A DNA stretch of 64,000 nt from Armatimonadota bacterium (GTDB lineage Bacteria; Armatimonadota; DTGP01; JAKQQT01). This document shows, one piece after another, positions 11,133 to 46,234 of the stretch. A program made the translations under genes and the position numbers. Within the stretch, counting starts at the first letter, position 1; each line of letters begins with the position of its first letter. Location: positions 3,077 to 67,076 of the forward strand of contig DASXUL010000031.1 of NCBI GenBank assembly GCA_036504855.1. The letters are read 5' to 3'. The notes beneath the pieces are model-generated. The model searched no databases. It saw only the letters and a program-made list of their open reading frames with translations, and had not been told where the DNA came from.

Positions 11133-13826
11133 CTATGGCGCTATCGCCTGTAGTATCTGCGCCACGTCGGCCACGTCCAGCACGCCGTCTGCGTTGAAGT
11201 CGGCAGCGGCGGCCTCGGCGGCGCTGGGCTTCCTCATGCCGGCCGCGTCGCGCAGCGCCAGGTAGGCATCCAGCGACGTCAGCTTCCCGTCGCCGCTGGC
11301 ATCGCCCGGCAGCGCGGGACGCACGGTGACCGCCATATCGAGCGTCAGAGACGGCAACCCGATCCGCAGGGAACCGTTCACCGGGCGGCCGGCGGCCGTG
11401 GACAGGACGGCGCCGGTGTTCGTGTTCCAGCACGTCAGCACGTACTGCCCTTCCGCCATGCCGCTGACGGTCAGGGTCACGCCCGTGATCGTCTGCGCGG
11501 CGCTGGAGCGAACGTCCTCGGTCACCCACATCATCGCCTGGCGCGCGTCGGCCGAGGCCATCGTGATGAGTCCGGCACGGCTCGATGACACCCGGTTGTC
11601 GGCGTTTGCCACGTGGAAGGTGGACCAGTCCAGCCCCTTGCACACGGCCGCTTGGGCCTTCTGGACCGCGTGCATGGCCATGGTCAGGTAGTGCGGGTCC
11701 AGATAGGGCCAGCGCATCCCGCCGCCGGCCCCGCCGGAGGCCAGGTGCGCCCATGCCATGTGGTGGAAGTATTGCGTATCGAACGTCGGGTTGTTGGTGA
11801 GCCACGGGTACGGGAGGTCGATGGGTCCGGATTCGCTATCGGTATACGGCCGGCCATCTGCGATGGCGGCGAGGTTGGCCTTCACGCCGCCGTTCACCGA
11901 GATCGCCGGGGCGATGATGTTCTGCGGGTTGTTCACCGTACCGCCGTAGTACTGATGGGTATTGGCGAACTCAAAGCGCGGATGCCGCAACGCCACGTCG
12001 CCGATGATCCCGCCCGGCTCGGAAGCCGCCGTGGACACGGTCACCATATGCCGGTGTCCCCATTTGGCGTACTCGTAGTCCTGAACGTAAGCGGCCATCT
12101 CGTTCACCCAGTCCTGGCGTTGAGCCTCGGAAGCGTTCCACCAGATGTCGAACTCGTTGAGCAGGTCCCAGGCGAAGATGGCGCGGCTGTTGCCGTACCG
12201 GTCGATAAGGTATTTGAAGCGGTTCTTCTGCGAGGCGCGCACGGCAGGGCTGGTGATGAAGTCCGTCATATTGGTCACAAGGCCGCCCGGATTCACCGCA
12301 TTGTAGGGATTCGGGTCCCAGTTGCGGTTCATCCAGAACGTGTCCCACGGGGTAGCCAGCACGGTCATGCCGTACTTCTCGCAAATGGGAAGGAACTGGT
12401 CCCAGAACCTCTGGTTCAGCGGCGCCCAGGTTCCCAGCGGGGTTTCCATGTACTGAACGGGGTTCTCAGCGTACTCCATCATGATGCGCATCACGTTCAC
12501 GCCGTTGGCCTTCAGCATCGCCACATAAGCATCGGCCGAGGCGACATCTCCGTTGCGGAACAGGCCGGTGAGGCCGGGCCAGTCGTATCCGTCGTTCTCG
12601 CCGATCGCCACGGTAACGCTGCCGTCCGGGAACACGAAGGCCCGGCCGTCGTCCGCCACGCGCGCGTTTCGCCCGTAAAGGTCGCGGTTCACGGTGATGT
12701 TCACGGAAGGCGTGGACGCGGTGGAGCCGTCCGCCGCGGTGAGCACGGCGCTGATGGCGTGCGGGCCGTCGCTGCCGGCCGGGAACACTCGACGGGCCGT
12801 GAAAGGCGCGCCCCCCTCGGCGAACGGCGCCCCGTTATCCAGGTACTTGGCGTGCACGAACGGATCCGTCAGGCCCAGCACAACCGTATAGGCCGGGCCA
12901 ACGATCTGCCCCTCGAAAGGCTGCACAATGGTGGGACGCGCCAGGGTCACGGGGGCCCAGAACGCCCTGCGGTAGCCTCCGGCATCGGTCGCCGAGAGGC
13001 GTAGCGTATACGTTCCGCCTGCCGCCGACGCGTCCAGCGACCACGGCGCGTTGATCACGCCCGGCGTCACCCCGCTCGCCAGTTGCGTCCACGTTGCGGG
13101 CGCGAGGCCGGCCCCAACCTCCAGCGCCCAGGACGTCGCCGATGGGCCGACGAAGCCGTGCACGTTCACGGATCCCGAGATGAATGCATTCGGCGCCGGA
13201 GCGGTGATGGAGGCAGACGGTCCGCTCATAGACACGTCGTCCCAGCGGCTCACGCTGTTATTCCAGCCATAGAGCATCACCCGGGCGTCGTCGTTCAGGG
13301 AATCGCTGTTCAGCGTGTATACGACGGCGCCGTTCGCCAGGAAAGTGTAGTTGTTCCCGTTGCGCTCAATGCGAAGCGTGGTGGGATTGGAGGGGCTGAC
13401 CGCGCCGGGAACCGGCGACCTGCCGGAGTAGTTGTTCGGCCCGGGGAACCACACATGCAGGATCGGCGTGCCGTCCGCGTCCGTGCCTTCCATGCCGAAC
13501 TCCAGCCAGTGGTTGAACCCGGTGGGGCCGCAATAGAGCTGAAGGATCTGGTTCGTGCCGCTCCAGCCATCGGCCTCCGCCTGCACAACGCCCTTCTGCC
13601 CGATCCGCGCGAACGACGCGAATCCGCTGCGGTACGGCGCGCCCGTTACGGTCAGCCCGCCGCCCACGGTGGACGCCGAGGCCAGGGCGGAGCCGTCCTC
13701 ATTGATCGCCGCCCACCGCCCCGAATCGAGCGTAGACGCGGAGAAGTCGTCATACGGAGTCATGGTCTGAGCGGAAGCGGCCAGTGTGGCGGCAAGGCCA
13801 AGCAGCAGGGGGGCAAGCGTTTTCAT
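11133..13826 (-). CDS. Secreted glycoside hydrolase (GH5-like TIM barrel) with an N-terminal lectin/LamG-like region and a C-terminal type-I dockerin
   Basis: Signal peptide MKTLAPLLLGLAATLAASA. The ORF begins at GTG 13841, but the likely start is ATG 13826. Central catalytic region carries the NEFD motif (AWDLLNEFDIWW). C-terminal duplicated Ca-binding dockerin repeats: GDASGDGKLTSLDAYLALRDAAG and ADFNADGVLDVADVAQILQAI. Confidence 0.7.
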   Translation of the reverse strand: MKTLAPLLLGLAATLAASAQTMTPYDDFSASTLDSGRWAAINEDGSALASASTVGGGLTVTGAPYRSGFASFARIGQKGVVQAEADGWSGTNQILQLYCGPTGFNHWLEFGMEGTDADGTPILHVWFPGPNNYSGRSPVPGAVSPSNPTTLRIERNGNNYTFLANGAVVYTLNSDSLNDDARVMLYGWNNSVSRWDDVSMSGPSASITAPAPNAFISGSVNVHGFVGPSATSWALEVGAGLAPATWTQLASGVTPGVINAPWSLDASAAGGTYTLRLSATDAGGYRRAFWAPVTLARPTIVQPFEGQIVGPAYTVVLGLTDPFVHAKYLDNGAPFAEGGAPFTARRVFPAGSDGPHAISAVLTAADGSTASTPSVNITVNRDLYGRNARVADDGRAFVFPDGSVTVAIGENDGYDWPGLTGLFRNGDVASADAYVAMLKANGVNVMRIMMEYAENPVQYMETPLGTWAPLNQRFWDQFLPICEKYGMTVLATPWDTFWMNRNWDPNPYNAVNPGGLVTNMTDFITSPAVRASQKNRFKYLIDRYGNSRAIFAWDLLNEFDIWWNASEAQRQDWVNEMAAYVQDYEYAKWGHRHMVTVSTAASEPGGIIGDVALRHPRFEFANTHQYYGGTVNNPQNIIAPAISVNGGVKANLAAIADGRPYTDSESGPIDLPYPWLTNNPTFDTQYFHHMAWAHLASGGAGGGMRWPYLDPHYLTMAMHAVQKAQAAVCKGLDWSTFHVANADNRVSSSRAGLITMASADARQAMMWVTEDVRSSAAQTITGVTLTVSGMAEGQYVLTCWNTNTGAVLSTAAGRPVNGSLRIGLPSLTLDMAVTVRPALPGDASGDGKLTSLDAYLALRDAAGMRKPSAAEAAAADFNADGVLDVADVAQILQAIAP

Positions 13827-13985: not shown

Positions 13986-15071
13986 CTAGATGACTTCCAA
14001 GCCGTCGCGGTCTGGGAGGGTTGGGAAGGGCGCGTGCGGCTCGGCCTGATACCAGAACGATGTGCTGGAGATGTCGTCCTGCATCGGAAGGTAGCGGCCG
14101 TCCGGGCGCCAGCCGAGCGCCTGGATGGTCACCCTCAGGTCCTGCTGGAAGCGGATGGGGTCCTGAACGTGCCAGCGATAGAGGCCGAACCGTTGCTGGC
14201 TCTGGTAGAGGCCGTCTGGCTTGATGACCTGCGGCAAGCCGAGGTAGGGGGTGCTGAAGACGCCGTACTCGCCTTGCGGGTGCTCGAAATTCCAGGCGCC
14301 GCCGAAGTAGTCTTCGGTGCCCGTGCCGCAGATAGTGGGGAAATCGGTATCGCCATCCAGGTAGAACTTGATCTCGCCCTCGCCCCACCAGCCCGTGTTG
14401 TTCACGCCCCAGGCCAGGTAGGTTCCCACATACTGCCCCCAGCCCTTCACCCCATCCAGAAGGGTGTGAACGGTCTTGTACGGCAGCGGGTTGCTGCGGC
14501 GGAACTGAGCGTGGAAGTATGCTGCGTCGTCGGGAACCTCCGTCAGCGTGTAATCCACCTGGTAGTAGTAGCCGCCACACGGCTCATGCCAGAGGTTCTC
14601 CACCGTGATCCGGGCGCTCTTGCGGAACGGCATCTCCCAGTAGCTGTTGAACCCGCCGGCCGGGTTCACCGCAACGGGCAGGCTGGAAACGTTGCACCGT
14701 TTGCACCAACCGCTGCAGAAGAGATCGCCCAGCGGGACCTCCACGCTGGGGGTCTCCTCGCCGTCCCAGTAGACGCGGATCACGAGGCGCCGCCAGAAAT
14801 CCGGGTGAACCGTGTTCCAGAAATGTTGGATGGCTCCTGGCCCCTCGATGTCGGCGATGGTGACCGTCTCGTTGGGAGGGATTGTGATGCAGGGAGATAC
14901 CTTCCAGCCCTGGCCCAGTTCGCGGGCGCAGCGCGACCCAGAGCCTTCGGTGGCCATGCCGGCCTTGCCCTTCTCGCCGGTGAAGTTCTCCGCGCTGATG
15001 CTGCGCGATTGCGCTCTGGAAAGGCGCGAGACGTTGTGCAGGCCGATGCCCAGCCCGTTGAATCCGTCCAT
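13986..15071 (-). CDS. DUF2961-like protein (family reported as glycoside hydrolase GH172)
   Basis: 361 aa from MDGFNGLG (ATG 15071, RBS aggagc). The upstream 49 codons of the ORF are Arg-rich and likely non-coding. Sits adjacent to the GH5 gene. Confidence 0.5.
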   Translation of the reverse strand: MDGFNGLGIGLHNVSRLSRAQSRSISAENFTGEKGKAGMATEGSGSRCARELGQGWKVSPCITIPPNETVTIADIEGPGAIQHFWNTVHPDFWRRLVIRVYWDGEETPSVEVPLGDLFCSGWCKRCNVSSLPVAVNPAGGFNSYWEMPFRKSARITVENLWHEPCGGYYYQVDYTLTEVPDDAAYFHAQFRRSNPLPYKTVHTLLDGVKGWGQYVGTYLAWGVNNTGWWGEGEIKFYLDGDTDFPTICGTGTEDYFGGAWNFEHPQGEYGVFSTPYLGLPQVIKPDGLYQSQQRFGLYRWHVQDPIRFQQDLRVTIQALGWRPDGRYLPMQDDISSTSFWYQAEPHAPFPTLPDRDGLEVI

Positions 15072-15222
15072 GAGGCTTGTGCTCCTGTGAGTGGTCTCTG
15101 GCGGCGGGCCGCCGCCCATGCAGTTTAGGGTTCGGGGGCGGGACGAGGAAAAGCCCGAAGCGGGGTTCCGCTTCGGGCTTTTCCGGCGCCGGTTCCGGGC
15201 CTGGGCCCGGTATGGCATTGCG

Positions 15223-17826
15223 TTACCGAACGGCGATCATATGCAGGATGCCGTCTGTGGAAGCGCCGAGCACGAAGTCAACGCCCGGGATCTGACCGGT
15301 GGCGGCGAGGGCGCCGCGAACCGGGGTGATCACGGAGATGATCTGCTGATCGTCACCGTTCAGCGGGATACCGGAGAGGATCTCGCGGTTTTCCGTGGCG
15401 CGGTAGAGCAGGTTGTTGGTCTCAACGGGCATGCTCATGCTTCCGCCGGTGTTGCTGGCGTTGAACAGGCCGGGGAGGGTCAGGCCTACGGAGGCGCCGG
15501 CCGGATCGAAGGAAACGATGCGGCCATCGGCGGTGCCGGCCTGGATCAGGTTGGTGCGCTTCTCATAGAAGGCGCCGGCGATCAGCGGGCTGCCCAGGTT
15601 GGCGACCGTGCTGACGTTGCCGTTGACGATGTTCACCTTGCTGAACGTCTGACCGGTGCCAGTGCCCAGGTAGGCGGCCGGGCCAACCATCAGCGGGGAG
15701 GTGACCGCGGCCACCGGGGCGCTGTTGATCGGAACGAGGTCCGGGAAGGACAGCGTGTAGACGCCGCTGTTGGAGCCCACTACCACGCGGTTGGCGTACG
15801 GGACGCTCGGCGAGGAGGTGGTGATGCCAGAGCCGAGGCTGGCTTCCTTGGTGACCGTGGCCAGGGTGTCGGCCGGAACGACAGCCACCTTGGAGGCGCC
15901 GTTCAGGCTGTAGGAGACCACCAGTTGATCGGCGGCGAGGCCGGAGATCGCGTGGTCAACAACGGCGGGAGCGGTGTAGATCTTCGCGCCGGCCGCGAAC
16001 GGCTTGCCGGAGATCGTTTCGCCCGTCTTGAGGTTGAACCGGTAGATGGAACCGCCGTCGGTGGCGACGTAAGCGAAGTCCTTCAACACGGCGGCGCGGC
16101 CAATGACCTTGCCATCCAGGAACTTGCCCAACTCGAACCCCGGCATATCATTGCCGGTGGCGGGGTTGATGACGAAGAGCGTCTGGCCGGAAGCCGCGAT
16201 GGCAACCCGGGCGTCATCGGTGCGGGTGGCCGCCGTGGGCGAGCCTTCCACCATGGCGCCGAGCTTGCGGCTCTGAATGGCCTGAACCATCGTGCCGCCA
16301 ATCAGGCCGCCGCGGAGAGCGCCCGAGGCGCCGCCGGAGGCGACAGTGTACTGGCCGGTGAAGGTGGCCGGGTTGAACGGGGCGTAGTCGGTTGTGTTAA
16401 ACGGCGCCACGGCGGATTCGGCGCCGGGCTTGGCGTTCAGCGTGCCCTTGAGACTGGCGTTGCCAAAGGCATCGTACGTGGCGACCACGCTAAACGTGCC
16501 CGTTTCAATGGCGGCGCCGAGGTCCGGATTGGCGTAGGAGATCGTGAACGTTCCGGTGTAAGTAACAACAACGCCGTCAACGGCGGCGACGGATCCGCTC
16601 AGGAGCAGGTTGTAGCGGCTGAGATCGCGATCCTGCAGGTCTGGAGCGCCGATGCCGAGGTAGGCGGCCAGAGGACCGCCGGCGTTGAAGGGCTCGCCCA
16701 CGTCCGCTCGACCGTTGCCGTTCGAGTCCGTGTTGACGATATTGCCTTCGGCGATGCTGGCGGAGAAGCCCAGGACGCCTCCGATGAGAGAGCCGGAAAC
16801 GATGCCGGTTTTGCCGCCCGCGGCCGGAACATAGGTCCCGTGGAAGGTGGCGGGGTTGAAGATGGCGTAGTCCGTGTTGGCCCACGCGGCTTCCGTGGTC
16901 GAGAAGCCAGGCTTGGCGACGAGGGTGGCGGTGAGTTTGGCGGCGCCGGTGCTGGCTTCGTTGTAGTCCGCAACCAGCGTGAAGTCGCCCGTCTCAATGG
17001 TCAGTCCGGTGGGGAACAGGTTGCCGTCGTTGTAGACGAGGGAGAACGTTCCCGCGTATGACACTGTCGTGCCGGACACGGATGTCACCGTGCCGTTGAA
17101 CTTCAGCGAATAGCGGTTCAGGTCGTTGTCGGTCAGCGGCGGGGCGCCAACGTAGAAGTAGGTGGAGAGGGGCGCCGTCATGGCGAAGGTCTCGCCAACT
17201 TCAGCGACGCCGTCGCCGTTCTCATCGCCGTTGGAGGCCGTGCCGTTAGACAGGCTCGCCGCGAAGCCGATGTTGCCTGCGTTGACGCTGGCGGTGATCA
17301 CACCCGTGGCCGGATCTGAGTTCGGCGTGTAGACGCCGAAGAAGCGGCCGGGGTTGTACAAGGAAAAGTCCGTAGCCGCGAACTTCGGATCCGAGGAAAC
17401 CGAGCCCGGATTAGCGGTGAGGGTTCCGGTGATCTTGGCGGCGCCTGATCCATCGAACTTGGCGCGCAGGTCCAACGTTCCGGTTTCAATGTCTGTGGTC
17501 AGATCCGGGCCGCTGTACGTGATGGTGAAGGTGCCCGTGTAGCGCACTGATGTGCCGGAGACTTCCGCGACGACGCCGTTGAGGGTGGCGAAGTACCGGT
17601 TCAAGTCATTGTCGAGGATCGCTGGGGCCGAGCCCGAGGAGCGGTAACTGGTAAATGCCGCGTTCGTAACCGTGAATGTCTCGTTTACGTCGGCCTTACC
17701 GTTGTGGTTAGCGTCGTTGTTCACGACGGTGGCGTTAGCCATTGTGAAGCCGAAACCATCGGCCCGGGCAGGAGCCGTCCCCAACCCGGTCAAGACGAGG
17801 AGGGCGGCCGCCCATCTCAATTTCAT
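15223..17826 (-). CDS. Secreted protein with three tandem ~160-aa repeat modules and a C-terminal beta-propeller-like domain
   Basis: Signal peptide MKLRWAAALLVLTGLGTAPARA (ATG 17826, RBS aggaag). Repeats carry recurring ...NDLNRY...G.V..V.G..V.Y.GTF...Y..P.L...IETG.F.L.A.....G.A.L..TL.A.PG.... The ORF extends spuriously upstream to 17991. Confidence 0.55.
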   Translation of the reverse strand: MKLRWAAALLVLTGLGTAPARADGFGFTMANATVVNNDANHNGKADVNETFTVTNAAFTSYRSSGSAPAILDNDLNRYFATLNGVVAEVSGTSVRYTGTFTITYSGPDLTTDIETGTLDLRAKFDGSGAAKITGTLTANPGSVSSDPKFAATDFSLYNPGRFFGVYTPNSDPATGVITASVNAGNIGFAASLSNGTASNGDENGDGVAEVGETFAMTAPLSTYFYVGAPPLTDNDLNRYSLKFNGTVTSVSGTTVSYAGTFSLVYNDGNLFPTGLTIETGDFTLVADYNEASTGAAKLTATLVAKPGFSTTEAAWANTDYAIFNPATFHGTYVPAAGGKTGIVSGSLIGGVLGFSASIAEGNIVNTDSNGNGRADVGEPFNAGGPLAAYLGIGAPDLQDRDLSRYNLLLSGSVAAVDGVVVTYTGTFTISYANPDLGAAIETGTFSVVATYDAFGNASLKGTLNAKPGAESAVAPFNTTDYAPFNPATFTGQYTVASGGASGALRGGLIGGTMVQAIQSRKLGAMVEGSPTAATRTDDARVAIAASGQTLFVINPATGNDMPGFELGKFLDGKVIGRAAVLKDFAYVATDGGSIYRFNLKTGETISGKPFAAGAKIYTAPAVVDHAISGLAADQLVVSYSLNGASKVAVVPADTLATVTKEASLGSGITTSSPSVPYANRVVVGSNSGVYTLSFPDLVPINSAPVAAVTSPLMVGPAAYLGTGTGQTFSKVNIVNGNVSTVANLGSPLIAGAFYEKRTNLIQAGTADGRIVSFDPAGASVGLTLPGLFNASNTGGSMSMPVETNNLLYRATENREILSGIPLNGDDQQIISVITPVRGALAATGQIPGVDFVLGASTDGILHMIAVR

Positions 17827-18464
17827 CGTCTGACTTCCTTTCATTACGCGGGGAAATCCAGGGCACGCAGGGGAGCGCGCCACCAAGTTGTTCGAGTGAG
17901 GGCCGCTTTCACCCGGGGTTCCCCCCGGGCGCGCCCCCATCAGGGATAAATCGTCTGCTGTATGAAAGGGAACACGCGAATCCGCCAGCACAGACGCGCG
18001 GAACCCCAGATGCGGAAATCAGAAGGGGATGACACAAGAGTGAACTACCTGCAGGGTCGGGGCCAGAAGGAGGAACCGACACACGGCGTTCGGCGCTTCT
18101 CCGCTGCCGACGATCCTGTAGGATTCAGAGAGAGACTCTTTTGTGTCCGACCCCGGCCGGCGCCTTTACTACCCCGGCCCCACCAAGAGCGGGCTGAGAA
18201 GCCCCTCCCAAAAAGCAGAAGGACAGCCGCTTCCCGTTCACTGCCTGGCGCCTCCATTATAATACGAATCGGGCGCGGTTTTCATCCGGCGTGCCTAAAA
18301 GTTTGCCACGCGGCAATGAACGCGCGATCACGCTGATTCCGCAACAAAGAGCGGGTAGACGCACCATGAACTATGATCGGTCGCCTGAACGCGGCTCTTT
18401 ACCCGTATGACACGAATGGCCACGCTCCCGCAACGGGTCGGGGCTCGCTAGGAGGCGAATCGGA

Positions 18465-19559: not shown

Positions 19560-22196
19560 ATGCACATCGTTCGTCTCTGTCTTCCGGCGCTGCTGGCGGT
19601 TGCGGGCCACGCGACCGAGCCGGCGGCGCCCCTCGTGAAGGACCTCGTTCAGTTCGCCGGCGGAAAGCCCGTTCCCATCGTGGCTGTGGCCGCATGGGAC
19701 GGGGCTGTTGAGCGCTCCGGGCCTCCGCCTTCAACAGCCGGCAAGGCATGGCTCCCGGCTCTCCAGGCCATCGCCGAAGGAGCCTCGACACCAAGCGATA
19801 CCGCCATCCCCTTCGGTTTCGGCGCCGTGTGGACCATTGCGCCCGACGAGATGACGGTCCCCAGCCTGCCCATCGGCCCGTTCGACCCGCTGACGACCCT
19901 ACGGGCGGACACCCTGTTTCCGATGGTCGCCGCCAGCCTAACGCCGGAACAGATGGAGAAGGCCTCCGCGGGCGGGTTGACCTGGAATGATTGGACGGTG
20001 GACCAGCAGCGCCTGCTCACCGCCGCGTTTAGCCGGCCCGGCCTCTCCGCCTCCACGGTATCGTGGGCGGGCGGGGTACCAACATCGCGCGCCACACCGT
20101 TGCCCGGCGGCGCGCTGCCCATCTGGCGCGCAAGGGTGCGCCTTGGGCTGGCCTTTCGATATCTGCGCATCCCCGCCGCGGACGGTGGATTCGGCTCTGG
20201 GTACTATCTGCACACCGAAGAGCCGCGGCTCCGTTTCCCTTCCGAATCGATGTCTCCCATCGGGTACGACCCCCCGATTACGTCGCACTGCCGACAGACC
20301 GCCAGACTGAAGCCGCAGGGCATCGCCTTCGGCAGCGCGGCGCTGTCGGCCCCGATCGGCGTCTCCGGTTCCCTCACCGTCGCCGAGGTCGTCAAGGCCG
20401 CCGCTGCGGCAACCGGTCTGTCGATAAAGGTCGATCCGCATTTCGCCGGCAAGCCCGCCTTCGTTGGCGACTCCAGGTTGCGCGCCGGCGACGTTATGAA
20501 GGCTCTGGCGTTCGACCTCAGCGCCGCGTGGCGTCGCATTGGCCGTCACCTGTACCTGGCGTGGGACATGCTGGGTTTCGCGGCGTTCGACACGCTGCTG
20601 CGGGAGACCGCCGAACCCGTGCAGGAGGCGTTGCGCACCTTCTCGGCATCGATCGCCAGAAGCGGTTGGGTGGCCGACGCGTTCCAATACGTGGCGCCGC
20701 GGGCCGCGGCGCGAATCGGCCCAACCCCGGAACAAGTTGCCGCGCTCGCACGGGTCCCCCCCATCACGGCGAACGTGATCAACGCGGAGGACGCCAGTAC
20801 GCTTCCCTTCAGCCAGTTGACTTCGGCGCAGCAGGCCGCCATCCGCGCGGTGATGCCGCCGATCGAGCCCGGCGATCTCCAGCGCGCCGTCGTCGGTAAC
20901 CTGACCATCGAGGCCACCGTTCAGGTTCCAGGGCTGCCGCCGATGCTGCTAGGCGAAAACGGGCTCGCGGGGATTGACGCCGTGTTCACCGCGCCCGCGC
21001 CGGCCCAGAATCCCAAGGCCGACTGGCCGCCGAAGAACCTGCCGGGCGAGGGCTCCATCCGGTTGCCGCAGCCGGTGCGAGCGCTGGCGCCGACCCTCCT
21101 CACCCGCGGCGAATGGCCCCGACTGCTGGAGCAGATGCGCCGAAAGGGCCTCAATTGCCTGTACTTCCCCGTGCTGTGGGACGGACACGCAACCTTCCCG
21201 TGCAAAGCCTTCCCGCTGGCTCCAGAGGCGCGCGGCGTGGATCTGCTGGCCGAGGTAGCGACACGGGCGAAGCCGCTTGGCATTCGCGTTGTTGGAGTTG
21301 TCCATACGCTCGCGTGGCGCTTCCCTGGAGGCGGCGAGCTCCACTGGCTGCACCGGCATCCGGAAATGGTGGACGTGGACGCGGCGGGCCGCACGCGGCG
21401 CGAATGGGCCACGCCGGAACGGTTGCGCTCGCCGCTCTACAAAGGCGCCGACTGGGCGGAGGACCCACTCGCGTTTTCCGATATGGCGGACCCGACCCTG
21501 CCGGCGGTGCGCTCACGCCTGCTGGCCTTCTGCGCCGAGCTGCGGGCCCACGGCGGCCTTGACGGCGTGGCGCTGGCCCATTGGACACGCGGCGCGGGCC
21601 AAGATTACCCCGGCTCGCTGATGCCGATGTTGGGTTACACGATACCTGCCCGCGCGGCCTTCCTCGAAAAGCGCGACGAGGATATCGCCGACACGCCGTT
21701 GGAGCCATTCTGGCGAGGGCGAACGTGGTCGCCGTTCGGCCCCGCCGATCAGAGGCTCGTGTTCTCGGACACGGCGAGCCAGTGGCGGGGGCTGCAGTGG
21801 GATGCGGAGATCGATCTGGTGGACGCGCTGGAAGACGAACTGCGCAAGACGTGGATAGCCGGCGTGAGCGTGTTCTACCCCTATGAAGCCGCAGTCCCGG
21901 CGCCGTTGGCGGCCAAGCGATTGGAAGCGGATACGCTCATCGCCTCAACCGCTTCGGGGAAAGGGGAGTACCAATGGCTTCCGGCGCCGAAGCCCGTCGA
22001 TCCCGCGCCCGGCTACATCCAGACCTACCTCGGCGACGAACTGGCGAAGGCCAACGAGAACCGCGCCGCCCGAGCCGCCATCCGCCTTCAGCGCCTCACC
22101 GGCCCCTCCGCCGCCAACCTCGCCGGCGTCGTGCTGGACTTCACCACCGGCCCAGACCTGATGTGGGATGCGTTGAGGTTGGTCGCCGGGCCGTGA
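19560..22196 (+). CDS. Secreted 878-aa protein with a C-terminal GHL10-like (PF02638-type) glycoside-hydrolase-like TIM-barrel domain
   Basis: Signal peptide MHIVRLCLPALLAVAGHA. Segment LYFPVLWDGHATFPCKAFP...GVDLLAEVATRAKPLGIRVVGVVHTLAWRF resembles the conserved GHL10 core. Confidence 0.5.
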   Translation: MHIVRLCLPALLAVAGHATEPAAPLVKDLVQFAGGKPVPIVAVAAWDGAVERSGPPPSTAGKAWLPALQAIAEGASTPSDTAIPFGFGAVWTIAPDEMTVPSLPIGPFDPLTTLRADTLFPMVAASLTPEQMEKASAGGLTWNDWTVDQQRLLTAAFSRPGLSASTVSWAGGVPTSRATPLPGGALPIWRARVRLGLAFRYLRIPAADGGFGSGYYLHTEEPRLRFPSESMSPIGYDPPITSHCRQTARLKPQGIAFGSAALSAPIGVSGSLTVAEVVKAAAAATGLSIKVDPHFAGKPAFVGDSRLRAGDVMKALAFDLSAAWRRIGRHLYLAWDMLGFAAFDTLLRETAEPVQEALRTFSASIARSGWVADAFQYVAPRAAARIGPTPEQVAALARVPPITANVINAEDASTLPFSQLTSAQQAAIRAVMPPIEPGDLQRAVVGNLTIEATVQVPGLPPMLLGENGLAGIDAVFTAPAPAQNPKADWPPKNLPGEGSIRLPQPVRALAPTLLTRGEWPRLLEQMRRKGLNCLYFPVLWDGHATFPCKAFPLAPEARGVDLLAEVATRAKPLGIRVVGVVHTLAWRFPGGGELHWLHRHPEMVDVDAAGRTRREWATPERLRSPLYKGADWAEDPLAFSDMADPTLPAVRSRLLAFCAELRAHGGLDGVALAHWTRGAGQDYPGSLMPMLGYTIPARAAFLEKRDEDIADTPLEPFWRGRTWSPFGPADQRLVFSDTASQWRGLQWDAEIDLVDALEDELRKTWIAGVSVFYPYEAAVPAPLAAKRLEADTLIASTASGKGEYQWLPAPKPVDPAPGYIQTYLGDELAKANENRAARAAIRLQRLTGPSAANLAGVVLDFTTGPDLMWDALRLVAGP

Positions 22197-32729: not shown

Positions 32730-32823
32730 TCGACTCCAAAACCCGTTCGTGAACCGGGGGCCGCGCCAGACTTGGCGCGGCCCTCCGACCATCTCGGTTA
32801 GCCGAGTAGGAGAAAGCACAAAG

Positions 32824-33672
32824 TTGACGTTTTCCGAAAGAATGGGGATCGTGAAGCCTCGCGAGGCGCTCCAGGTTAGCCGGATCGATACCGCGCTGCG
32901 TTACTCACTTTGGAACACAGTTGTGTCTGCCTTCGGCAATGACTGGCGCAAACTTGCCGGTCTGTTGTTCGACAAACACTGCAAACTACCAGTAGACTCC
33001 CTGCCCGACAAATCATACTGCGAACATCGCGGTGGCCGTGACGAGAACAGCCCATGCCGCCACTGGCTTCTGGATAAGTTCAACTGCTGCCCCTGGTACG
33101 AGGTATACGACCTGTTGGAGTGCATAGTCACCAACTTGAACCTGCTTCAGCCAGACGCCGTGCTGCAGAGACAATTCCTGCAGGAGGTCAGCCAAGTTCT
33201 AGAGCGTGAGGGCTCAGGCTACCGCCTCATTGGGACCGAGTTCGCCCCCATAGCATCAGAGGCAGACATTGCGGCGATTGAGGCGGCTCAGCGCTCGCCA
33301 TTGGTAGGTGCCAGCACGCACATCAGCAAGGGCCTCTCCTGCTTCGCACGGAAACCCGAACCAGACTACCACAATTGCATCAAGGAATCTATCACTGCGG
33401 TGGAGAGCGTCTGCAAGATCATCGTCGGCGACGACAAGGCTACACTTGGCAAGGTGCTCAGTAAGCTCGACAGCGTCATGCCCATTCACAAAAGCCTGCG
33501 CCAGTCCATGGACTTCCTGTACGCATTCACAAACGATGAGGGCGGCATCCGGCATGCCGGCTCGACCAAGTCCGAAGTCGGTTGCGCCGAAGCCAGGTTC
33601 TGCTTGGTGACGTGTTCCGCCCTCGTCGGTTACCTCACCGACAAGGCGCGGGAGACTGGCCTTCTTTCGTAG
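32824..33672 (+). CDS. AbiJ-NTD4 / HEPN (Abi_C)-like abortive-infection-type protein, in a lower-GC islet
   Basis: N-terminus (M)TFSERMGIVKPREALQVSRIDTALRYSLWNTVVSAF resembles the AbiJ N-terminal domain. TTG start at 32824, with RBS aggaga 8 nt upstream. Local GC is about 55-58% against 68-70% in flanks. Confidence 0.5.
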   Translation: MTFSERMGIVKPREALQVSRIDTALRYSLWNTVVSAFGNDWRKLAGLLFDKHCKLPVDSLPDKSYCEHRGGRDENSPCRHWLLDKFNCCPWYEVYDLLECIVTNLNLLQPDAVLQRQFLQEVSQVLEREGSGYRLIGTEFAPIASEADIAAIEAAQRSPLVGASTHISKGLSCFARKPEPDYHNCIKESITAVESVCKIIVGDDKATLGKVLSKLDSVMPIHKSLRQSMDFLYAFTNDEGGIRHAGSTKSEVGCAEARFCLVTCSALVGYLTDKARETGLLS

Positions 33673-34308: not shown

Positions 34309-34902
34309 ATGACCATCTCAGGTCTCGGTTCCAGCTACAACATCAAATCGTTGACCGGAACCCAAAGCACATCATCGATCGCCAGCCTGCTGGCGACGGA
34401 GGACACAGACAGCGCGAGTTCCACATCCAGCGCCGCCGATCTGTCGAAGCCAGGCCAGATGCTGGCCAAGTTGAAGCAGCTTCAGCAGGAAGACCCGGCC
34501 AAGTTCAAGGAAGTCGTCAGCAAAATCGCGGACAAGCTCTCGGCCGCGGCCGAGAAGGCCGGCGCGGATACCAAAGACGGCAAGTTCCTTACGAAGCTCG
34601 CCAGCGATTTCCAGAAGGCGGCGGACACGGGCGACCTCTCGTCGCTGGAGCCGCCGGCTCGCCCGGCCAATGACGCCATCGCCGCCTACAAGTCGCTCAG
34701 CGGCAGCGATGGCAGCGCGCTCGGCAAAGCAGCCAACGGCAAGGGCCCCCGCGGCGCCGGCGGACCTCCTCCGGGCGGACCGCCGCCCGCCAGCAGCGCC
34801 TCCGACGACGATGACGACTCCGACACGACCACTGTGAAGTCCCTGCTGGATCAGATCGACGACGAACTGACCGCCGCCCTCAGCGGAAGCTCCGAGTCCT
34901 GA
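34309..34902 (+). CDS. Hypothetical low-complexity (Ser/Ala/Asp-rich, likely disordered) protein
   Basis: 197-aa ORF with moderate-GC codon usage. Poly-D/S tracts and a GGPPPGGPPP motif. No recognisable domain. Confidence 0.35.
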   Translation: MTISGLGSSYNIKSLTGTQSTSSIASLLATEDTDSASSTSSAADLSKPGQMLAKLKQLQQEDPAKFKEVVSKIADKLSAAAEKAGADTKDGKFLTKLASDFQKAADTGDLSSLEPPARPANDAIAAYKSLSGSDGSALGKAANGKGPRGAGGPPPGGPPPASSASDDDDDSDTTTVKSLLDQIDDELTAALSGSSES

Positions 34903-40538: not shown

Positions 40539-41042
40539 ATGCGACGTCCCATCCTCATCCTCGTAAACACCATCTATCACGTCTGCGCCGCGCTTTGGAT
40601 CGGCAGTCTCATTGGCATTGGCGCCATGGCGGCGCCCGCGGCGTTCCAGACCCTGGGACGCGGCGCCGGAAGTCCGGCGGGCATCATCATCGGAGAGGCC
40701 TTCAAGTGGGCCAACACCAGCTCGTTTGCCTGCCTTGCCATTATGCTGGCCGTCGGCGTGTTCGAGTTGTCCTACCGGAAGCGAGTGAACACCAAGCGGC
40801 TGCTGATGGCCCGCCTGTTGCTCACGGGGGTAGCGCTGCTGATCGTTCTGTACCTGTCGCAACAATTGATGCCGCAGATGGAGATCCGGCGCGCCATCGG
40901 CGATATGGCGTCATTCGACCGGATGCATCGGGCTTACTCAGATATCGCGCGGTTGGAAGTGCTGCTGGGCGTGGCGCTGATCGCGCTCACCAACGCCGTT
41001 AACATCGGCCCGCGACGTGAAGGCGGGCATCCGAGGCATTGA
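40539..41042 (+). CDS. Small integral membrane protein (DUF4149-like, 4 TM). Overlaps the glcD start (ATGA).
   Basis: Four hydrophobic helices (HVCAALWIGSLIGIGAMAAPAAF, FACLAIMLAVGVF, LLLTGVALLIVLYL, LLGVALIALTNAV). Confidence 0.4.
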   Translation: MRRPILILVNTIYHVCAALWIGSLIGIGAMAAPAAFQTLGRGAGSPAGIIIGEAFKWANTSSFACLAIMLAVGVFELSYRKRVNTKRLLMARLLLTGVALLIVLYLSQQLMPQMEIRRAIGDMASFDRMHRAYSDIARLEVLLGVALIALTNAVNIGPRREGGHPRH

Positions 41043-42481
41043 TGAACCCGGAGTTCCTGCGCCGATTGAAGGCGCTGCTATCGTCGGACGCCGTGCTCAC
41101 CCAACCGGTTGAGCGGATGGTCTACGAGTGCGACGCGTACACCGTGGAGAAGGCCCAGCCGGACGTGGTAACCCTGCCGTCATCCACGGATGACGTGGCC
41201 GGCATCGTGCGCCTCTGCCGCGAGTACGCCGTGCCGTTTCTGGCGCGCGGAGCCGGAACCGGGCTCTCCGGCGGCGCGCTGGCCCTGGGCGGAACCGTCA
41301 TCATCGCGATGGCCCGCATGAACAAGGTCCTCTCGGTGGACGCCGCCAACCGCCGCGCCCGCGTGCAGGCTGGCATCGTAAACACGCACGTCTCCCGCGC
41401 CGTGGAAGCGTTCGGGCTGCACTTCGCTCCGGACCCCAGCTCGCAGAGCGCCTCCACCATCGGCGGCAACATCGCCGAGAACGCCGGCGGCCCGCATACC
41501 CTGAAATACGGCGTCACCTCCAACCACATCCTGGCGGCCGAGATCGTGACGCCGGACGGCGACGTGATCGAAGTTGGCTCCCCGGTGGAGGACGCCCCGG
41601 GTCTGGACTTGCTGGGCGTGATCGTCGGCTCGGAGGGCACCTTCGGGATCATCACCGAGGCCACGCTTCGGCTCACCCCCATCGCCCCGGCCTGGCGGAC
41701 TCTGCTGGCCACGTTCGACACGGTGGATGACGCCACCAACACGGTGAGCGGCATCATCGCCGAGGGCATCTTGCCCGCCGCGCTGGAGATGATGGATGCC
41801 GTCATCATCCAGAGCGTTGAGGCGGCTTTCCATCTCGGCTTCCCGCTGGACGCCGCCGCCGTGCTTCTGGTGGAACTGGACGGACATGCCGCCGGCCTGG
41901 ACGCCGACGCCGCGCGCTGTCTCGCCGTGTGCGAGGCCCATCACGCCCGCAAGGTGGACATGGCCCGCACCGAGGAGGAACGCGCCGCGCTCTGGAAGGC
42001 CCGCAAGAAGGGCGTTGGCACGCTGGGCCGCATCTCTCGCAGCATGGTCACCCAGGACTGCGTCATCCCGCGCAGCAAGCTGCCCGTCGTCCTTGCATCC
42101 ATCAGCGAGATCGTGGCCCGCCACGGCCTGCGCGTAGCCAACATTTTCCACGCCGGCGACGGCAACCTGCACCCCATCGTGCTCTTCGACGAGCGCATCC
42201 CCGACGAGGTGGAACGGATGGTGGCTGCAGGACACGAGATTATCTCACTCTGCCTCGGCGTGGGCGGCAGCATCACCGGCGAGCACGGGGTGGGGGTGGA
42301 GAAGCAGGATTTCCTCGCCCTCCAGTTCTCCGAAGCGGATCTCGATACGATGCGCCGCCTCCACGATGCGCTGGATCCGGACGACTTCTGCAACCCCGGC
42401 AAGGTGTTCCCGGGGGCCAAAGGTTGCTCCCGCGGCTGCACCCACGAGATCAAACTGCGCCAGAAGGCCGCCGCCGTGTAA
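41039..42481 (+). CDS. glcD: Glycolate oxidase FAD-linked subunit
   Basis: FAD-binding PCMH domain (RGAGTGLSGGA) and a C-terminal FAD-oxidase domain. Start MNPEFLRRLKALL. Confidence 0.82.
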   Translation: MMNPEFLRRLKALLSSDAVLTQPVERMVYECDAYTVEKAQPDVVTLPSSTDDVAGIVRLCREYAVPFLARGAGTGLSGGALALGGTVIIAMARMNKVLSVDAANRRARVQAGIVNTHVSRAVEAFGLHFAPDPSSQSASTIGGNIAENAGGPHTLKYGVTSNHILAAEIVTPDGDVIEVGSPVEDAPGLDLLGVIVGSEGTFGIITEATLRLTPIAPAWRTLLATFDTVDDATNTVSGIIAEGILPAALEMMDAVIIQSVEAAFHLGFPLDAAAVLLVELDGHAAGLDADAARCLAVCEAHHARKVDMARTEEERAALWKARKKGVGTLGRISRSMVTQDCVIPRSKLPVVLASISEIVARHGLRVANIFHAGDGNLHPIVLFDERIPDEVERMVAAGHEIISLCLGVGGSITGEHGVGVEKQDFLALQFSEADLDTMRRLHDALDPDDFCNPGKVFPGAKGCSRGCTHEIKLRQKAAAV

Positions 42482-42536
42482 CCGGCGCGTTGGGCGCGTG
42501 TTCTCTGAAGCCCAACCCAGGAAAGCCCGACACTCC

Positions 42537-43757
42537 ATGACAGACATTGCCTCCGCGTTGCGCCTGAAGCTCGGCGCGTTGAACGTGATAGACGGTAAGA
42601 AGACGCCCTTTGGGGCGCGGGCAGCGGCGTTTCCGGCCAACGAGGCCGAGGCCGCCGAGTGCGTTGCCCAGGCCGCCTCCGTTGGCGCGCCGGTGATCTG
42701 CGCCGGCGGCGGATCCTACGTGGATGCCCTCGCGCCCGTTCGCCCAGACGCCCTCCTCCTCTCCTCCGCCCGCATGGCCGCCATCGTCGAATACCACCCG
42801 GAAGACATGGTGATCACCGCGGAGGCCGGCCTTCCCTTGGCCATGCTGCAGGATGCCTTGCGGCGTAAGGGCCAGTTCCTGCCGGTGAACCCGCCGGAGC
42901 CGCAGGCCGCCACGCTGGGCGGCATCGTGGCCTCGGCTTCCACCGGAACGTGGCGCTCCGCCTACGGGCCGGTGAAGGACCATGTTATCGAGGTGCAGGG
43001 CGTGGACGCGCAGTCACGCGTCATCCGGGGCGGCGCGCGCGTGGTGAAGAACGTGGCCGGATACGACCTTCCGAAGCTCTACACAGGAAGCCGCGGCTCC
43101 CTGCTGTTCCTCACGCTCCTCACGTTCAAAGTCCGCCCGCTTCCAGAGGCGGCGGCATGGCTCTTGTTCACGGCCCCCACGTGGAGGGCCCTGCATGAAC
43201 GCCTGGCCGTCCTCGCCGCATCCGATGTGCGACCCAACATCATTGAAGTCACCCGTCCCGACCTGACGGACACGCAGGAACGCCCCTCCGCCCTCATCAC
43301 CCTGGAAGGCAGCGCGGAATCCGTTCAGTGGCAGGTAACCGCAGCCTCCAACGCGCTGCGGGGCGACGGCTCCGTGGTAGGCCGCGTGGACGACTACGCT
43401 TCGATGCCCCGCTCCGGCGACGTGGAGTTCACCATGCGCGTGCTGCCCACGGAGACCTACGAGATGGCGGAGGCCGTCTGCCAGGTGCTGGAACGCGGAG
43501 GGGTGACCTATCTTCCGATGGAGGGGCGGCTCACCGCGCGGTTGATGGCTCACCCGAACACGCCGGAACTCATCGCCCTGCTGCGCGACGCCGCCGAGGC
43601 GCGCGGAGGAACGCTCACCATGGAGCGCATGCCGAACGCGTGGTCAGGCCACGTGTCCCCTTTCGGCGCTCCGCGCCCCGACGCCGCGCTCACCCGTCTG
43701 GTGAAAGCCCGCCTCGACCCGCACAACACCTTCTCCGCCCAGATGCCTGGCTGGTAA
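42537..43757 (+). CDS. glcE: Glycolate oxidase FAD-binding subunit
   Basis: FAD-binding domain without the catalytic C-terminal domain. ...VKNVAGYDLPKLYTGSRGSLLFL... is typical of GlcE. ATG at 42537. Confidence 0.72.
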   Translation: MTDIASALRLKLGALNVIDGKKTPFGARAAAFPANEAEAAECVAQAASVGAPVICAGGGSYVDALAPVRPDALLLSSARMAAIVEYHPEDMVITAEAGLPLAMLQDALRRKGQFLPVNPPEPQAATLGGIVASASTGTWRSAYGPVKDHVIEVQGVDAQSRVIRGGARVVKNVAGYDLPKLYTGSRGSLLFLTLLTFKVRPLPEAAAWLLFTAPTWRALHERLAVLAASDVRPNIIEVTRPDLTDTQERPSALITLEGSAESVQWQVTAASNALRGDGSVVGRVDDYASMPRSGDVEFTMRVLPTETYEMAEAVCQVLERGGVTYLPMEGRLTARLMAHPNTPELIALLRDAAEARGGTLTMERMPNAWSGHVSPFGAPRPDAALTRLVKARLDPHNTFSAQMPGW

Positions 43758-43760
43758 TAC

Positions 43761-43807
43761 GCAAATGGAATGTCCGGCGGCCCTGGCCGCCGGACATTCC
43801 ATTTGCG
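43761..43807. terminator. Perfect 22-bp-stem palindrome between convergent glcE and the beta-helix gene
   Basis: gcaaatggaatgtccggcggcc-ctg-ggccgccggacattccatttgc. Confidence 0.55.
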
Positions 43808-43814
43808 AGCTATG

Positions 43815-46121
43815 CTACCGGCTCATCGCCTTCAGCGCGCGGGCCAGAGCGATGGCGTCCTGGATCGTGAGGCCGTTCGCGCCCGACATCTGATAGGCAT
43901 CCGCCTGCGCGGCGCTTGCGGGGGCGAGCCCGCCCGCGATGCGCAGGATGGCGGCCACATCACTCCACTTGCGCTCCGTCCCCGTTGCTGCGCTCTCATA
44001 GCACCCGGCGTCCACATGGAGGCCCTGGATGCGGGGCAGACCGTCCAGGTCCAACTCACCGGGCAGCACGGCGCTGTCATCCCCGAAGTCCACGCACGGC
44101 GACATGGGAAGCAAATGGTAGTCTTCGTTGAGCAAGTCTGCGAACATGGGATACGCCAGGATATTGCCGCCGCCCGCCAGGATAGGCGGCAGCGTGCCCT
44201 GCTCGACGGACGATGGGTAGATGCAGTTGCCCCGTGCCGTGACGTACGGTGAGGCGAGCACCGGCGTAATTGCGAAATCGCAGAAGGCCAGGATGTTGTT
44301 CATTATGCTCATGCGGCCCTGGATCATGAGGCGCAGCGCGGCTCCTGGACTGTTCACCACGGTGTTGTTCACCACATCCACCTCGGAGCGTTCGAGGCTC
44401 ATCGCAGCGAAGGGCGAGCCAGGAGTCACCGCCGCGTTCGCATCGAGGAGGTTGTTGGCGATTCTGCCGGCCGGGCAGTAATAGGCGCGGATCGCGGAGA
44501 GTGATGACCCGGATGAGACGCGGGTACCTGTCACCAGATTGCCGACGATGGTGGGCGTTGATGCTTGCGCTTCGACCGCCGTTGGAACCTTAGCGGTTCC
44601 CCCCACGACGGCGTTGTTCTCGAAAACGGCGGCGGAGCCAATCATCGATACGGCGCCGTTGATGTTGAGGAAGACGTTGTTGCGGATGTACGGCGATCCC
44701 CCCGAGCAGTTCACGCCTAGCATGGACGCATACTGAGTTGTGGAACCGTAGAAGATGAACCCATCGATGGAGCTCACGCGAAGGCCCGCAACGCTGCCGG
44801 CCGCGGCCCTTGATCCGGCGAGAAACGTGGGGTTGGCGGCCAGATTCCGTTGGTCGCGCGTTGATTCCGTACCGGCGAAACCGCCATAGAGGTAGACGTA
44901 TGGCCGCACGAGTATGGAGACCGCCAGCGGCGCAGCGCTCTGGGTCAGCGCGTAGGAGCCTGCCGCCACCCACACCTCGCCGCCGCCCGACGCCGCCGCC
45001 GCGTCAACCGCTGACTGAACGCTGTTCGTGGCCGTCGCCCAGGTGAGCCCGTCGTTCGTCCTCGCGCCTTTCGGCGAAACGTGGAAAACCCGCCTCGGCG
45101 TCGGCAGCCACTGGCGTCCGTCGGACTCGTCTGCCCCGATATCCACGTGCGCGCCCTGAAGCCGGGGCTGGAGGTCTACGTCTGTGTCTCCGGCTGCCGC
45201 CAGCGCGTCGTCGCCCGCATCACGGCAAGGGGAATCCGGCTGGATGTGGAGGTTCCCCGCGCCGTAGTCTGCCAGTGCTGGGTCGGAGTCGATATCATCC
45301 GGCCCCGGCTTGCTTCCAGCGGACACGTAGTCGCCGCCGATGTTGCCGTGGACGCAGTTATGGCGGCGGACGATTCGCGCCGCGTCCTCGGATATGCCGC
45401 TGACGTTGAAGGCGATGATGTTGTTGGCCAGGAGAGAGGTAGGCGCGTTCGTTACAGCCACCGCGCCGGCGGCGCCCGCATTGCCCACGATAGTGTTGTT
45501 GACGATGTACACGGCAGCATTGGACGCGTAGATCGCCGAACCAGACTGCGACGAGTTGGCCGTAATGATGTTCCCGGCGATCGTGGCGGCCGCTCCGCTC
45601 TGGCAGCAGATGCCTCCTCCTGTTCCCTTCATCGGTTCCGCATAGTTGGAGGTGACGATGTTGTGCGTCAGGATCAGTTTCCCGGTCTGCAGGCTCACGC
45701 CACCTCCATAGCCGGCCGACAGGCCGTTGCGGATGGTGAACCCATCTACCACGGCTGGCGGGCTGTTTACGGCGCCGGACCGCACGGTGACGCAGGGTGT
45801 TCTGTAGGCGCCGTCGATGACCGTGAGCGAAGGGATGCCCAGGCGCTGATCGCGGTAGGTTTCGGTGCCCACGAACCCGCCGTACAGAGCGACGGGCTTG
45901 TCGATGAGAAGATTGCCGGCATAGGTCCCGGCGGCTACCCAGATCTCGTCGCCGGCCGCTGCCGCCTGGATCGCCGCGGGAATCGCCGGGAAGGCGGTGG
46001 ACCACGACTTTCCGTCCGCCGTTGTGAGGGTGATGCCGCGATCTACGTAAATGACCCGCGCGGACGCCCCGCCCGCCAGCATGAAGAGGATGCTGAGGGC
46101 GCAGAAGGATGGATTACGCAT
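43815..46121 (-). CDS. Secreted protein with two tandem right-handed parallel beta-helix (pectate-lyase-like) domains and a C-terminal dockerin-like tail
   Basis: Signal peptide MRNPSFCALSILFMLAGGASA (ATG 46121). Recurrent NNTIVGN / NNIIAFN / NNVFLN coils. Duplicated N-capping modules AAAAGDEIWVAAGTYAG and AAASGGGEVWVAAGSYA. Tail WSDVAAILRIAGGL...ANGLTIQDAIALARALKAM. Confidence 0.65.
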   Translation of the reverse strand: MRNPSFCALSILFMLAGGASARVIYVDRGITLTTADGKSWSTAFPAIPAAIQAAAAGDEIWVAAGTYAGNLLIDKPVALYGGFVGTETYRDQRLGIPSLTVIDGAYRTPCVTVRSGAVNSPPAVVDGFTIRNGLSAGYGGGVSLQTGKLILTHNIVTSNYAEPMKGTGGGICCQSGAAATIAGNIITANSSQSGSAIYASNAAVYIVNNTIVGNAGAAGAVAVTNAPTSLLANNIIAFNVSGISEDAARIVRRHNCVHGNIGGDYVSAGSKPGPDDIDSDPALADYGAGNLHIQPDSPCRDAGDDALAAAGDTDVDLQPRLQGAHVDIGADESDGRQWLPTPRRVFHVSPKGARTNDGLTWATATNSVQSAVDAAAASGGGEVWVAAGSYALTQSAAPLAVSILVRPYVYLYGGFAGTESTRDQRNLAANPTFLAGSRAAAGSVAGLRVSSIDGFIFYGSTTQYASMLGVNCSGGSPYIRNNVFLNINGAVSMIGSAAVFENNAVVGGTAKVPTAVEAQASTPTIVGNLVTGTRVSSGSSLSAIRAYYCPAGRIANNLLDANAAVTPGSPFAAMSLERSEVDVVNNTVVNSPGAALRLMIQGRMSIMNNILAFCDFAITPVLASPYVTARGNCIYPSSVEQGTLPPILAGGGNILAYPMFADLLNEDYHLLPMSPCVDFGDDSAVLPGELDLDGLPRIQGLHVDAGCYESAATGTERKWSDVAAILRIAGGLAPASAAQADAYQMSGANGLTIQDAIALARALKAMSR

Positions 46122-46234
46122 GGAATGCTCCTGGCTTCGGCACGCCGTTGCGCCCAGTGGCGTGTCCGCCTGATTCTGACCGGCGGACTGACCGGATTGT
46201 TCCACGTTGACCCTCATGCCCGCCGCCGCGTACC

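Follow-up and report, generated by a model that had tools for sequence, protein, structure and literature searches.

The window analyzed here is a stretch of 64,000 nucleotides from an Armatimonadota bacterium (assembly GCA_036504855.1, contig DASXUL010000031.1, positions 3,077 to 67,076) with a guanine-plus-cytosine (GC) content of 66%. It encodes three proteins, referred to as P1, P2, and P3, that end in dockerin or dockerin-like tails. Dockerins are best known for the plug-and-socket assembly of cellulosomes, and their roles outside cellulosomes are largely unknown. The three genes are located on the minus strand at positions 11133–13826 (P1), 43815–46121 (P2), and 51917–56956 (P3), and all three products have signal-peptide-like N-termini. 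A preliminary description of this DNA had reported these genes at the same coordinates, and had proposed that a glycanase, a lyase-like beta-helix protein, and a protease share a C-terminal module. This observation was confirmed, as genes, coordinates, and profile scores agree; the family model and the predicted fold described below bear out that one module is shared by the glycanase-like protein, the beta-helix protein, and the protease. Contigs from JGI metagenome 3300035523 and from a Logan assembly carry the genes of the window in identical form, and an exact look-up there recovered the same gene call for P1. Protein collections contain the 768-residue P2 product and the 1679-residue P3 product, the latter under the NCBI name 'MAG TPA: S8 family serine peptidase [Armatimonadota bacterium]'.

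P1 is a secreted, glycoside-hydrolase-like protein of 897 residues, whose N-terminus (MKTLAPLLLGLAATLAASA) resembles a signal peptide on direct reading. Its residues 470–606 (12009–12419, minus strand), which include the stretch WDLLNEFD with an LLNE motif, resemble the barrels of glycoside hydrolase family 5 (GH5) and clan GH-A. The underlying phmmer matches in the PDB are weak and range from E = 3.7e-5 for the DUF5060-domain protein 9gmj, through E of about 2e-4 for the GH5 mannanases 3wh9 and 1rh9, to E = 3e-3. Since these are the only matches, and since P1 contains no Pfam catalytic domain and no Pfam Cellulase match at E ≤ 1, the label ‘GH5-like’ is plausible but weak. The C-terminal residues 840–893 (11148–11309, minus strand) belong to the Pfam family Dockerin_1 (PF00404), scoring 23.6 bits within the full-length protein and 30.0 bits when the tail is taken by itself (gathering threshold, 22.9 bits). 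Both 12-residue calcium loops are intact and can be read directly (DASGDGKLTSLD and DFNADGVLDVAD). Two such loops with Asp/Asn at positions 1, 3, 5, 9, and 12 are present in P1 and in neither P2 nor P3. Judged by its sequence, the P1 tail is a genuine, ordinary type-I dockerin, and the canonical duplicated dockerin of the preliminary description is thus upheld. A gene of the GH172 family (13986–15218, minus strand) lies directly beyond P1 at higher coordinates, followed by a gene (15223–17844, minus strand) whose secreted product of 873 residues weakly matches a beta-propeller. These two genes and P1 may form a small glycan-processing cluster.

P2 is a secreted protein of 768 residues with two beta-helix regions (two stretches matching Pfam Beta_helix, plus NosD). 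Residues 668–710 (43992–44120, minus strand) form a choice-of-anchor Q domain, which reached 46.7 bits with the NCBIfam model NF041518 (cut-off 25 bits). The choice-of-anchor Q family is named for standing ahead of interchangeable C-terminal anchors. The module that directly follows this domain in P2 is not a recognized anchor type but the dockerin-like tail (residues 712–768; 43818–43988, minus strand), which is delimited by the family model and the predicted fold and in which both calcium loops are degenerate (second loop, QMSGANGLTIQD). A syntenic P2 ortholog, P0223, is encoded beside glcE and glcD in the Armatimonadota metagenome-assembled genome (MAG) GCA_036504095.1, and the sequence of its tail is intermediate between the P2 tail and the family consensus. 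In the window, P2 is located on the opposite strand between glcE (42366–43757) and glcF (46235–47536) of a glycolate-oxidase-like gene set (41039–47536). The P0223 locus (L005, 10001–15657) retains the glcE, glcD, and DUF4149 surroundings and has an ABC-F gene on its other side.

P3 is a secreted S8 protease of 1679 residues that contains a subtilase catalytic domain (residues 304–652; 55001–56047, minus strand; Pfam PF00082, Peptidase_S8, 160.4 bits), three P-domains (three stretches matching P_proprotein), and CARDB. Its dockerin-like tail (residues 1620–1679; 51920–52099, minus strand) is, by family model and predicted fold, a typical family member, in which loop 1 is absent and loop 2 comprises 16 residues (NVETAGTSAVTVDIRD). 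The closest full-length homolog and ortholog of P3, P0002, shares 44% identity with it and has the same tail at its C-terminal end. Other homologs of the protease (P0064, P0069, and P0076), of which P0064 is from Armatimonadetes, bear a PF00404 dockerin. Among the P3 relatives (P0010–P0120), several other endings also recur, for example ...FRFFVNVEALP and ...QRFYRxRxxP. This variety points to an exchange of C-terminal modules from lineage to lineage within the protease family.

We aligned the tails of P3, P0002, and P2 as a seed for an exhaustive search with HMMER, which covered 1.84 billion representative proteins. The resulting tail family comprised 306 proteins at E ≤ 0.001, among them nine at E ≤ 1e-10, so that other open reading frames (ORFs) with the same tail were found and their alignment defined the motif. 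Positional, C-terminal end, and loop-length counts given in the following refer to the best 148 of the 306 proteins. The module is approximately 55 residues long, and in 143 of 148 proteins the match lies no more than 12 residues from the C-terminus. The family consensus, TFTLADAARALRIAGGLAAASAADLTRLNVETAGASAGRVDLLDAVRLARKAAGL, mostly has (E/D)xNP behind it and can be written in consensus form as (F/Y)TlaDAarALRIAGGL-aaasaaDltRLNVEtaGaSagrVDilDAvRiARKaAGL. The dipeptide NP forms the very C-terminal end of 89/148 proteins and is missing from the tails of the window itself, from P0002, and from the P2 orthologs. Two positions (G16 and D44) are invariant, three others (L11, A45, and R50) are conserved in more than 90% of the family, and the segments ALRIAGGL and RiARKaAGL are kept across the different cargo proteins. 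A scan of 74 family tails yielded no significant match in Pfam or NCBIfam; the sole match to Dockerin_1 was that of one member at E = 0.11.

The cargo domains associated with the tail include beta-helix, NosD, and DUF5123 domains, RCC1 and PD40 propellers, CarboxypepD_reg, Laminin_G_3, and S8 proteases. A signal-peptide-like N-terminus was present in 54 of the 69 full-length family members, and the choice-of-anchor Q motif HVDxGAYE precedes the tail in 53/137 members, as it does in P2. All seven named family members originate from Armatimonadota MAGs, several of them from shared assemblies; among the named examples, the tail family thus appears to be restricted to Armatimonadota. A scan of a genome collection with the family retrieved a single locus, which also stems from an Armatimonadota MAG, and scans of metagenomes found the tail at three loci only and no relative of P1. 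Three metagenome loci are not enough for statistics on neighboring genes. Word-indexed homolog searches were similarly unproductive, with no matches for the last 159 residues of P2 and merely seven short fragments for the profile of the 74 tails. In two related Armatimonadota contigs from the same metagenome (L008 and L009), tail-bearing genes are adjacent or in tandem (321–2186 and 2458–6939 in L008; 5742–9656 and 10001–14347 in L009). One of these pairs consists of a Laminin_G_3 protein beside a beta-helix protein, and each member scores 55–73 bits against the family model. Altogether, these data show that the tail is a conserved, lineage-restricted, dockerin-like C-terminal module that moves among cargo proteins whose N-termini resemble signal peptides.

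Pairwise BLASTP comparisons of the three window tails were insignificant, except for P1 versus P3 (E = 0.002 over 22 residues). We therefore assessed the membership of the window tails by profile, using family models for which only database sequences were taken; their targets were the full set of 1079 six-frame ORFs in the window. The P3 tail scored 62.4 bits (E = 1.7e-18) and the P2 tail 33.8 bits (E = 1.5e-9) with the first of these models. A control model, made from 143 database members with P2 omitted from the seed and the P2 orthologs left out, gave 67.3 bits (E = 5e-20) and 30.2 bits (E = 1.8e-8), respectively. The third-best match in the window was the P1 dockerin (13.9 bits, E = 0.0024 with the first model; 13.8 bits, E = 0.0025 with the control model), and the next-best ORF was found at E = 0.57 and E = 0.62, respectively. 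As wrong-frame ORFs of the same DNA score nothing, the composition of 66% GC DNA is not the cause of these matches. Based on profile score, location at the extreme C-terminus, and signal peptide, P3 and P2 are members of the family, and P1 is a borderline case with 13.8–19.4 bits. The tails of P2 and P3 are hence clearly related at the level of sequence profiles. An 878-residue protein encoded at 19560–22196 (plus strand) was considered as a fourth tail bearer because of a similarity by eye; with a family-model score of only 1.2 bits, it was ruled out. It has a signal peptide, a C-terminus reading …AARAAIRLQRLTG…DLMWDALRLVAGP, and no match in Pfam or NCBIfam.

Several features connect the tail family to dockerins. 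The module consists of two duplicated segments, each with the pattern hydrophobic-x-x-x-Asp-Ala followed by a helix. Calcium loop 1 has disappeared, and in most cases loop 2 is extended by an insertion of four residues. The two halves can be aligned with each other (FTxaDAxxALRIAGGL versus vDixDAvRiaRKaaGL; 16 columns, 44% consensus identity, P = 2.5e-4), which indicates at the sequence level that the family has retained an internal duplication, a hallmark of dockerins. Loop 2 comprises 16 residues in 90/148, 13 residues in 21/148, and 12 residues in 16/148 proteins. Where it has 12 residues, it resembles a canonical calcium loop, with N/D at position 1 and D/N at position 9 in 14 of 16 cases each, and with D as residue 12 in all 16; examples are DTNGDNRIDILD, found as the canonical second loop of P0241, and NPDGNSLLDLRD. 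P0242 possesses a canonical first loop (GDVNNNGVVDATD). When ten hand-picked intermediate members were compared with Pfam, Dockerin_1 was the best or only match in four of them, in each case below the threshold (20.2 bits for P0242, 19.6 for P0241, 16.4 for P0141, and 13.2 for P0153). The family model, in turn, aligns the P1 dockerin over nearly its whole length (19.4 bits), pairing helix 1 with helix 1 and, apart from a four-residue gap, loop 2 with loop 2. The P1 dockerin seems to be specifically close to the family, since the dockerin-like tails of the other P3 homologs do not score.

Structure predictions are consistent with this relationship. AlphaFold models of the tails (mean predicted local distance difference test score, pLDDT, of 74.6 for P3 and 76.3 for P2) contain two long helices separated by a short one. 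In Foldseek searches against 350,542 PDB chains, dockerins accounted for 12 of the 14 matches of the P3 tail model and for 18 of the 25 matches of the P2 tail model, including all of the top 14. The best match of the P2 tail was 2ccl_B (probability 0.96, root mean square deviation (rmsd) 1.5 Å). Across the matches, query TM-scores were ≤0.68 and rmsd values 1.5–2.2 Å. The models thus predict a three-helix dockerin fold for the tails of P2 and P3.

Other results speak against a dockerin ancestry of the two tails and have to be weighed here. Neither the P2 nor the P3 tail had any match in Pfam, even at E ≤ 10, or in NCBIfam. Taken at face value, the standard tools therefore assign a dockerin to P1 alone, an outcome that corresponds to the first half of what the preliminary description had named as refuting it; at the profile level, that objection does not hold for P2 and P3. 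Direct comparison by hhalign with the dockerin-like tails of the P3 homologs, which represent a different dockerin flavor (GDTxGDGxV...VRRQxG), was not significant for four window-type tails (E = 0.32) or for the full family (E = 0.063). A profile search of the PDB returned a single dockerin among five matches, 5m2o_B at rank 2, with an insignificant E-value of 0.33. The tail models, moreover, are of moderate confidence (pLDDT 75–76) and their fold is a prediction, and individual Foldseek E-values were about 1 or more, so that the support from these searches rests on the near-exclusive dockerin content of the match lists. On balance, a diverged, apparently Armatimonadota-specific variant of dockerins that is undetected by Pfam and NCBIfam is the most fitting description of the tails of P2 and P3.

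The best-studied relative for comparison is the type-I dockerin of Clostridium thermocellum (PF00404; PDB 1OHZ, 2CCL). Like this module, the tails are C-terminal, about 60 residues long, and attached to secreted enzymes; they consist of two duplicated segments 33–35 residues apart, each with a hydrophobic-x-x-x-Asp pattern followed by a helix, and their predicted three-helix fold superposes with an rmsd of 1.5–2.2 Å. The P1 tail is a full member of the same family. In contrast, the tails of P2 and P3 are not recognized by the Pfam model, lack the first calcium loop, and belong to a family in which loop 2 mostly has 16 instead of 12 residues. The systems also differ in that no cohesin was found in the DNA examined, that most of the cargo is not cellulolytic, and that the host is not a Firmicute but a member of the Armatimonadota, apparently with an outer membrane. 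The atypical dockerins of Ruminococcus flavefaciens provide a precedent for non-standard loops. In its group 1 dockerins (PDB 5M2O) the second calcium repeat has 13 or 11 residues and a helix has xxxNP behind it, and the group 2 and ScaA dockerins have one recognizable calcium repeat only (PMC2930009). The group 1 structure 5m2o_B was the first and the second Foldseek match, respectively, for the two tail models. However, the sequence similarity to these modules is marginal (E = 0.33), the insertion in the Armatimonadota tails comprises four residues, and their first loop is missing. Furthermore, the R. flavefaciens modules bind known cohesins in a defined cellulosome, whereas a partner of the Armatimonadota tail is only inferred.

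Non-cellulosomal dockerins provide another point of reference. They occur across many phyla according to Peer et al. 2009 (FEMS Microbiol Lett 291:1), as relayed in PMC10066038. As portrayed in that secondary account, these dockerin-like modules are found in organisms that have no cellulosome and, like the tails described here, on diverse proteins; they have no known function or a presumed adhesive one, and often lack a detectable cohesin. Unlike them, the tail family cannot be found with standard profiles, as it remains below Pfam detection (74 tails scanned, ten intermediates at ≤20.2 bits), and it is apparently confined to Armatimonadota. Fervidibacter sacchari, a cultured member of this phylum, has been reported to possess neither cohesin nor dockerin domains (PMC11535203). 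Because non-cellulosomal dockerins are well known and Pfam dockerins occur on P3 homologs, including one from Armatimonadetes, two statements of the preliminary description are not supported by our data. That such tails are unusual for a high-GC lineage was overstated, and the term ‘cellulosome-like’ does not fit a cargo of mostly beta-helix proteins, RCC1 and PD40 propellers, carboxypeptidase-regulatory-like and laminin-G domains, and S8 proteases rather than cellulases. The preliminary interpretation as a whole is therefore partly supported.

What could be the function of such a module? The N-terminal signal peptides suggest that the cargo is exported by the Sec pathway. The folded C-terminal module would then most likely serve as a protein–protein docking tag, which could hold diverse enzymes as well as beta-helix and propeller proteins non-covalently on a common receptor in the cell envelope. 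This receptor would be encoded elsewhere and might be of a divergent cohesin-like type or of another kind; the canonical dockerin of P1 may share this partner or use a sister partner. We consider this explanation, which combines a diverged dockerin family with tethering to a common envelope receptor, to be fairly probable. It agrees with the conservation of helix faces across unrelated cargo, which points to a specific shared interaction surface rather than to neutral decay, and with the fact that Pfam dockerins fill the same C-terminal slot in other P3 homologs.

Three points count against docking in the classical sense. Neither a cohesin (PF00963) nor another candidate receptor was detected in the window or among the Pfam-annotated called genes of six related loci, the rest of the genome not having been searched, and the neighborhoods of four other family members contained neither a cohesin nor a recurrent neighbor gene. 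A shared docking partner is plausible, but, as the search covered the window and related loci, it is only inferred. The calcium ligands are partly lost in the family and completely lost in P2, so that the classical picture of folding with calcium and binding to a cohesin may not hold. Finally, many genomes reportedly contain dockerins without cohesins, and for this reason a binding partner cannot be assumed.

The main competing explanation takes the tail for a C-terminal signal for sorting or secretion, comparable to those of type IX secretion, which would be read and perhaps cleaved by a machinery for export across or attachment to the outer membrane and would not be a stable docking module. 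An outer membrane is apparently present in these organisms, as LptF/LptG are encoded nearby. The strictly C-terminal location (143/148), the conserved free end ...(E/D)xNP (89/148), the position directly behind choice-of-anchor Q in P2 and behind the same motif in 53/137 members, and the occurrence of several copies per genome on unrelated secreted cargo would all be expected for such a signal. The tail indeed resembles PEP-CTERM, LPXTG, and type IX sorting domains, which are likewise small, exchangeable C-terminal modules carried within a single lineage by many secreted proteins that are otherwise unrelated. Yet it differs from them in essential features. On direct reading, the tails end in AAGL, KAMSR, or ...EPNP without a hydrophobic stretch and have no hydrophobic transmembrane helix with a basic cluster, which argues against a sortase or exosortase type; the predicted helical, dockerin-like fold differs from the beta-sandwich of type IX C-terminal domains; and no NCBIfam or Pfam sorting-domain model matched P1–P3 or the 74 family tails. 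The NP end, besides being absent from the tails of the window, P0002, and the P2 orthologs, has a counterpart in the xxxNP that follows the helix in R. flavefaciens group 1 dockerins (PMC2930009). We thus regard a sorting signal as rather unlikely.

It is also unlikely that the tails are dockerin relics without a common protein partner, which would act as a stabilizing cap, as a calcium- or glycan-binding element, or as a general adhesin. Such relics would fit the lack of a cohesin in any DNA examined, the partial or complete loss of calcium ligands, and the adhesin role that has been proposed for non-cellulosomal dockerins (PMC10066038), but they are difficult to reconcile with the strong conservation of the helix faces across hundreds of unrelated cargo proteins. 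That the P2 and P3 tails have no relationship to dockerins at all, and owe their similarity to convergence or to an Ala/Arg/Gly/Leu-rich composition of high-GC DNA, is highly improbable: it would accord with the failed Pfam and pairwise BLAST searches and with the insignificant profile comparisons with P3-homolog tails and PDB dockerins, but not with the lack of any other six-frame ORF of the same composition below E = 0.5, the sub-threshold Dockerin_1 matches of intermediate members, the canonical 12-residue loops and internal duplication within the family, or the dominance of dockerins in match lists drawn from 350,542 chains.

The tail could also represent a phylum-specific system for surface display or sorting, in which a dockerin-derived tag that is partly or fully independent of calcium labels hundreds of Sec-exported proteins, among them beta-helix proteins, proteases, propeller proteins, and glycanases, for a receptor or machinery other than a classical cohesin. 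This possibility is tentative and of low probability. Such a system would be an independent functional counterpart of cohesin–dockerin assembly or of type IX sorting by C-terminal domains, and with a partner other than a cohesin it would add to the surface-display systems known from bacteria. The coherent, phylum-restricted family of diverged dockerins, which Pfam and NCBIfam miss, offers annotators a new domain model, and the 55-residue tag provides a handle for fishing out the proposed receptor that would organize the cell surface in a poorly studied phylum.

Among the remaining features of the window, scans with Rfam and for tRNAs gave no matches. A gene at 34309–34902 (plus strand) encodes a low-complexity protein of 197 residues, which is rich in Ser, Asp, and Gly and has no Pfam match. 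The nearby ORF at 32749–33672 (plus strand, 307 residues) is of atypical composition, as it did not pass the filter for GC content at third codon positions that picked out the other genes.

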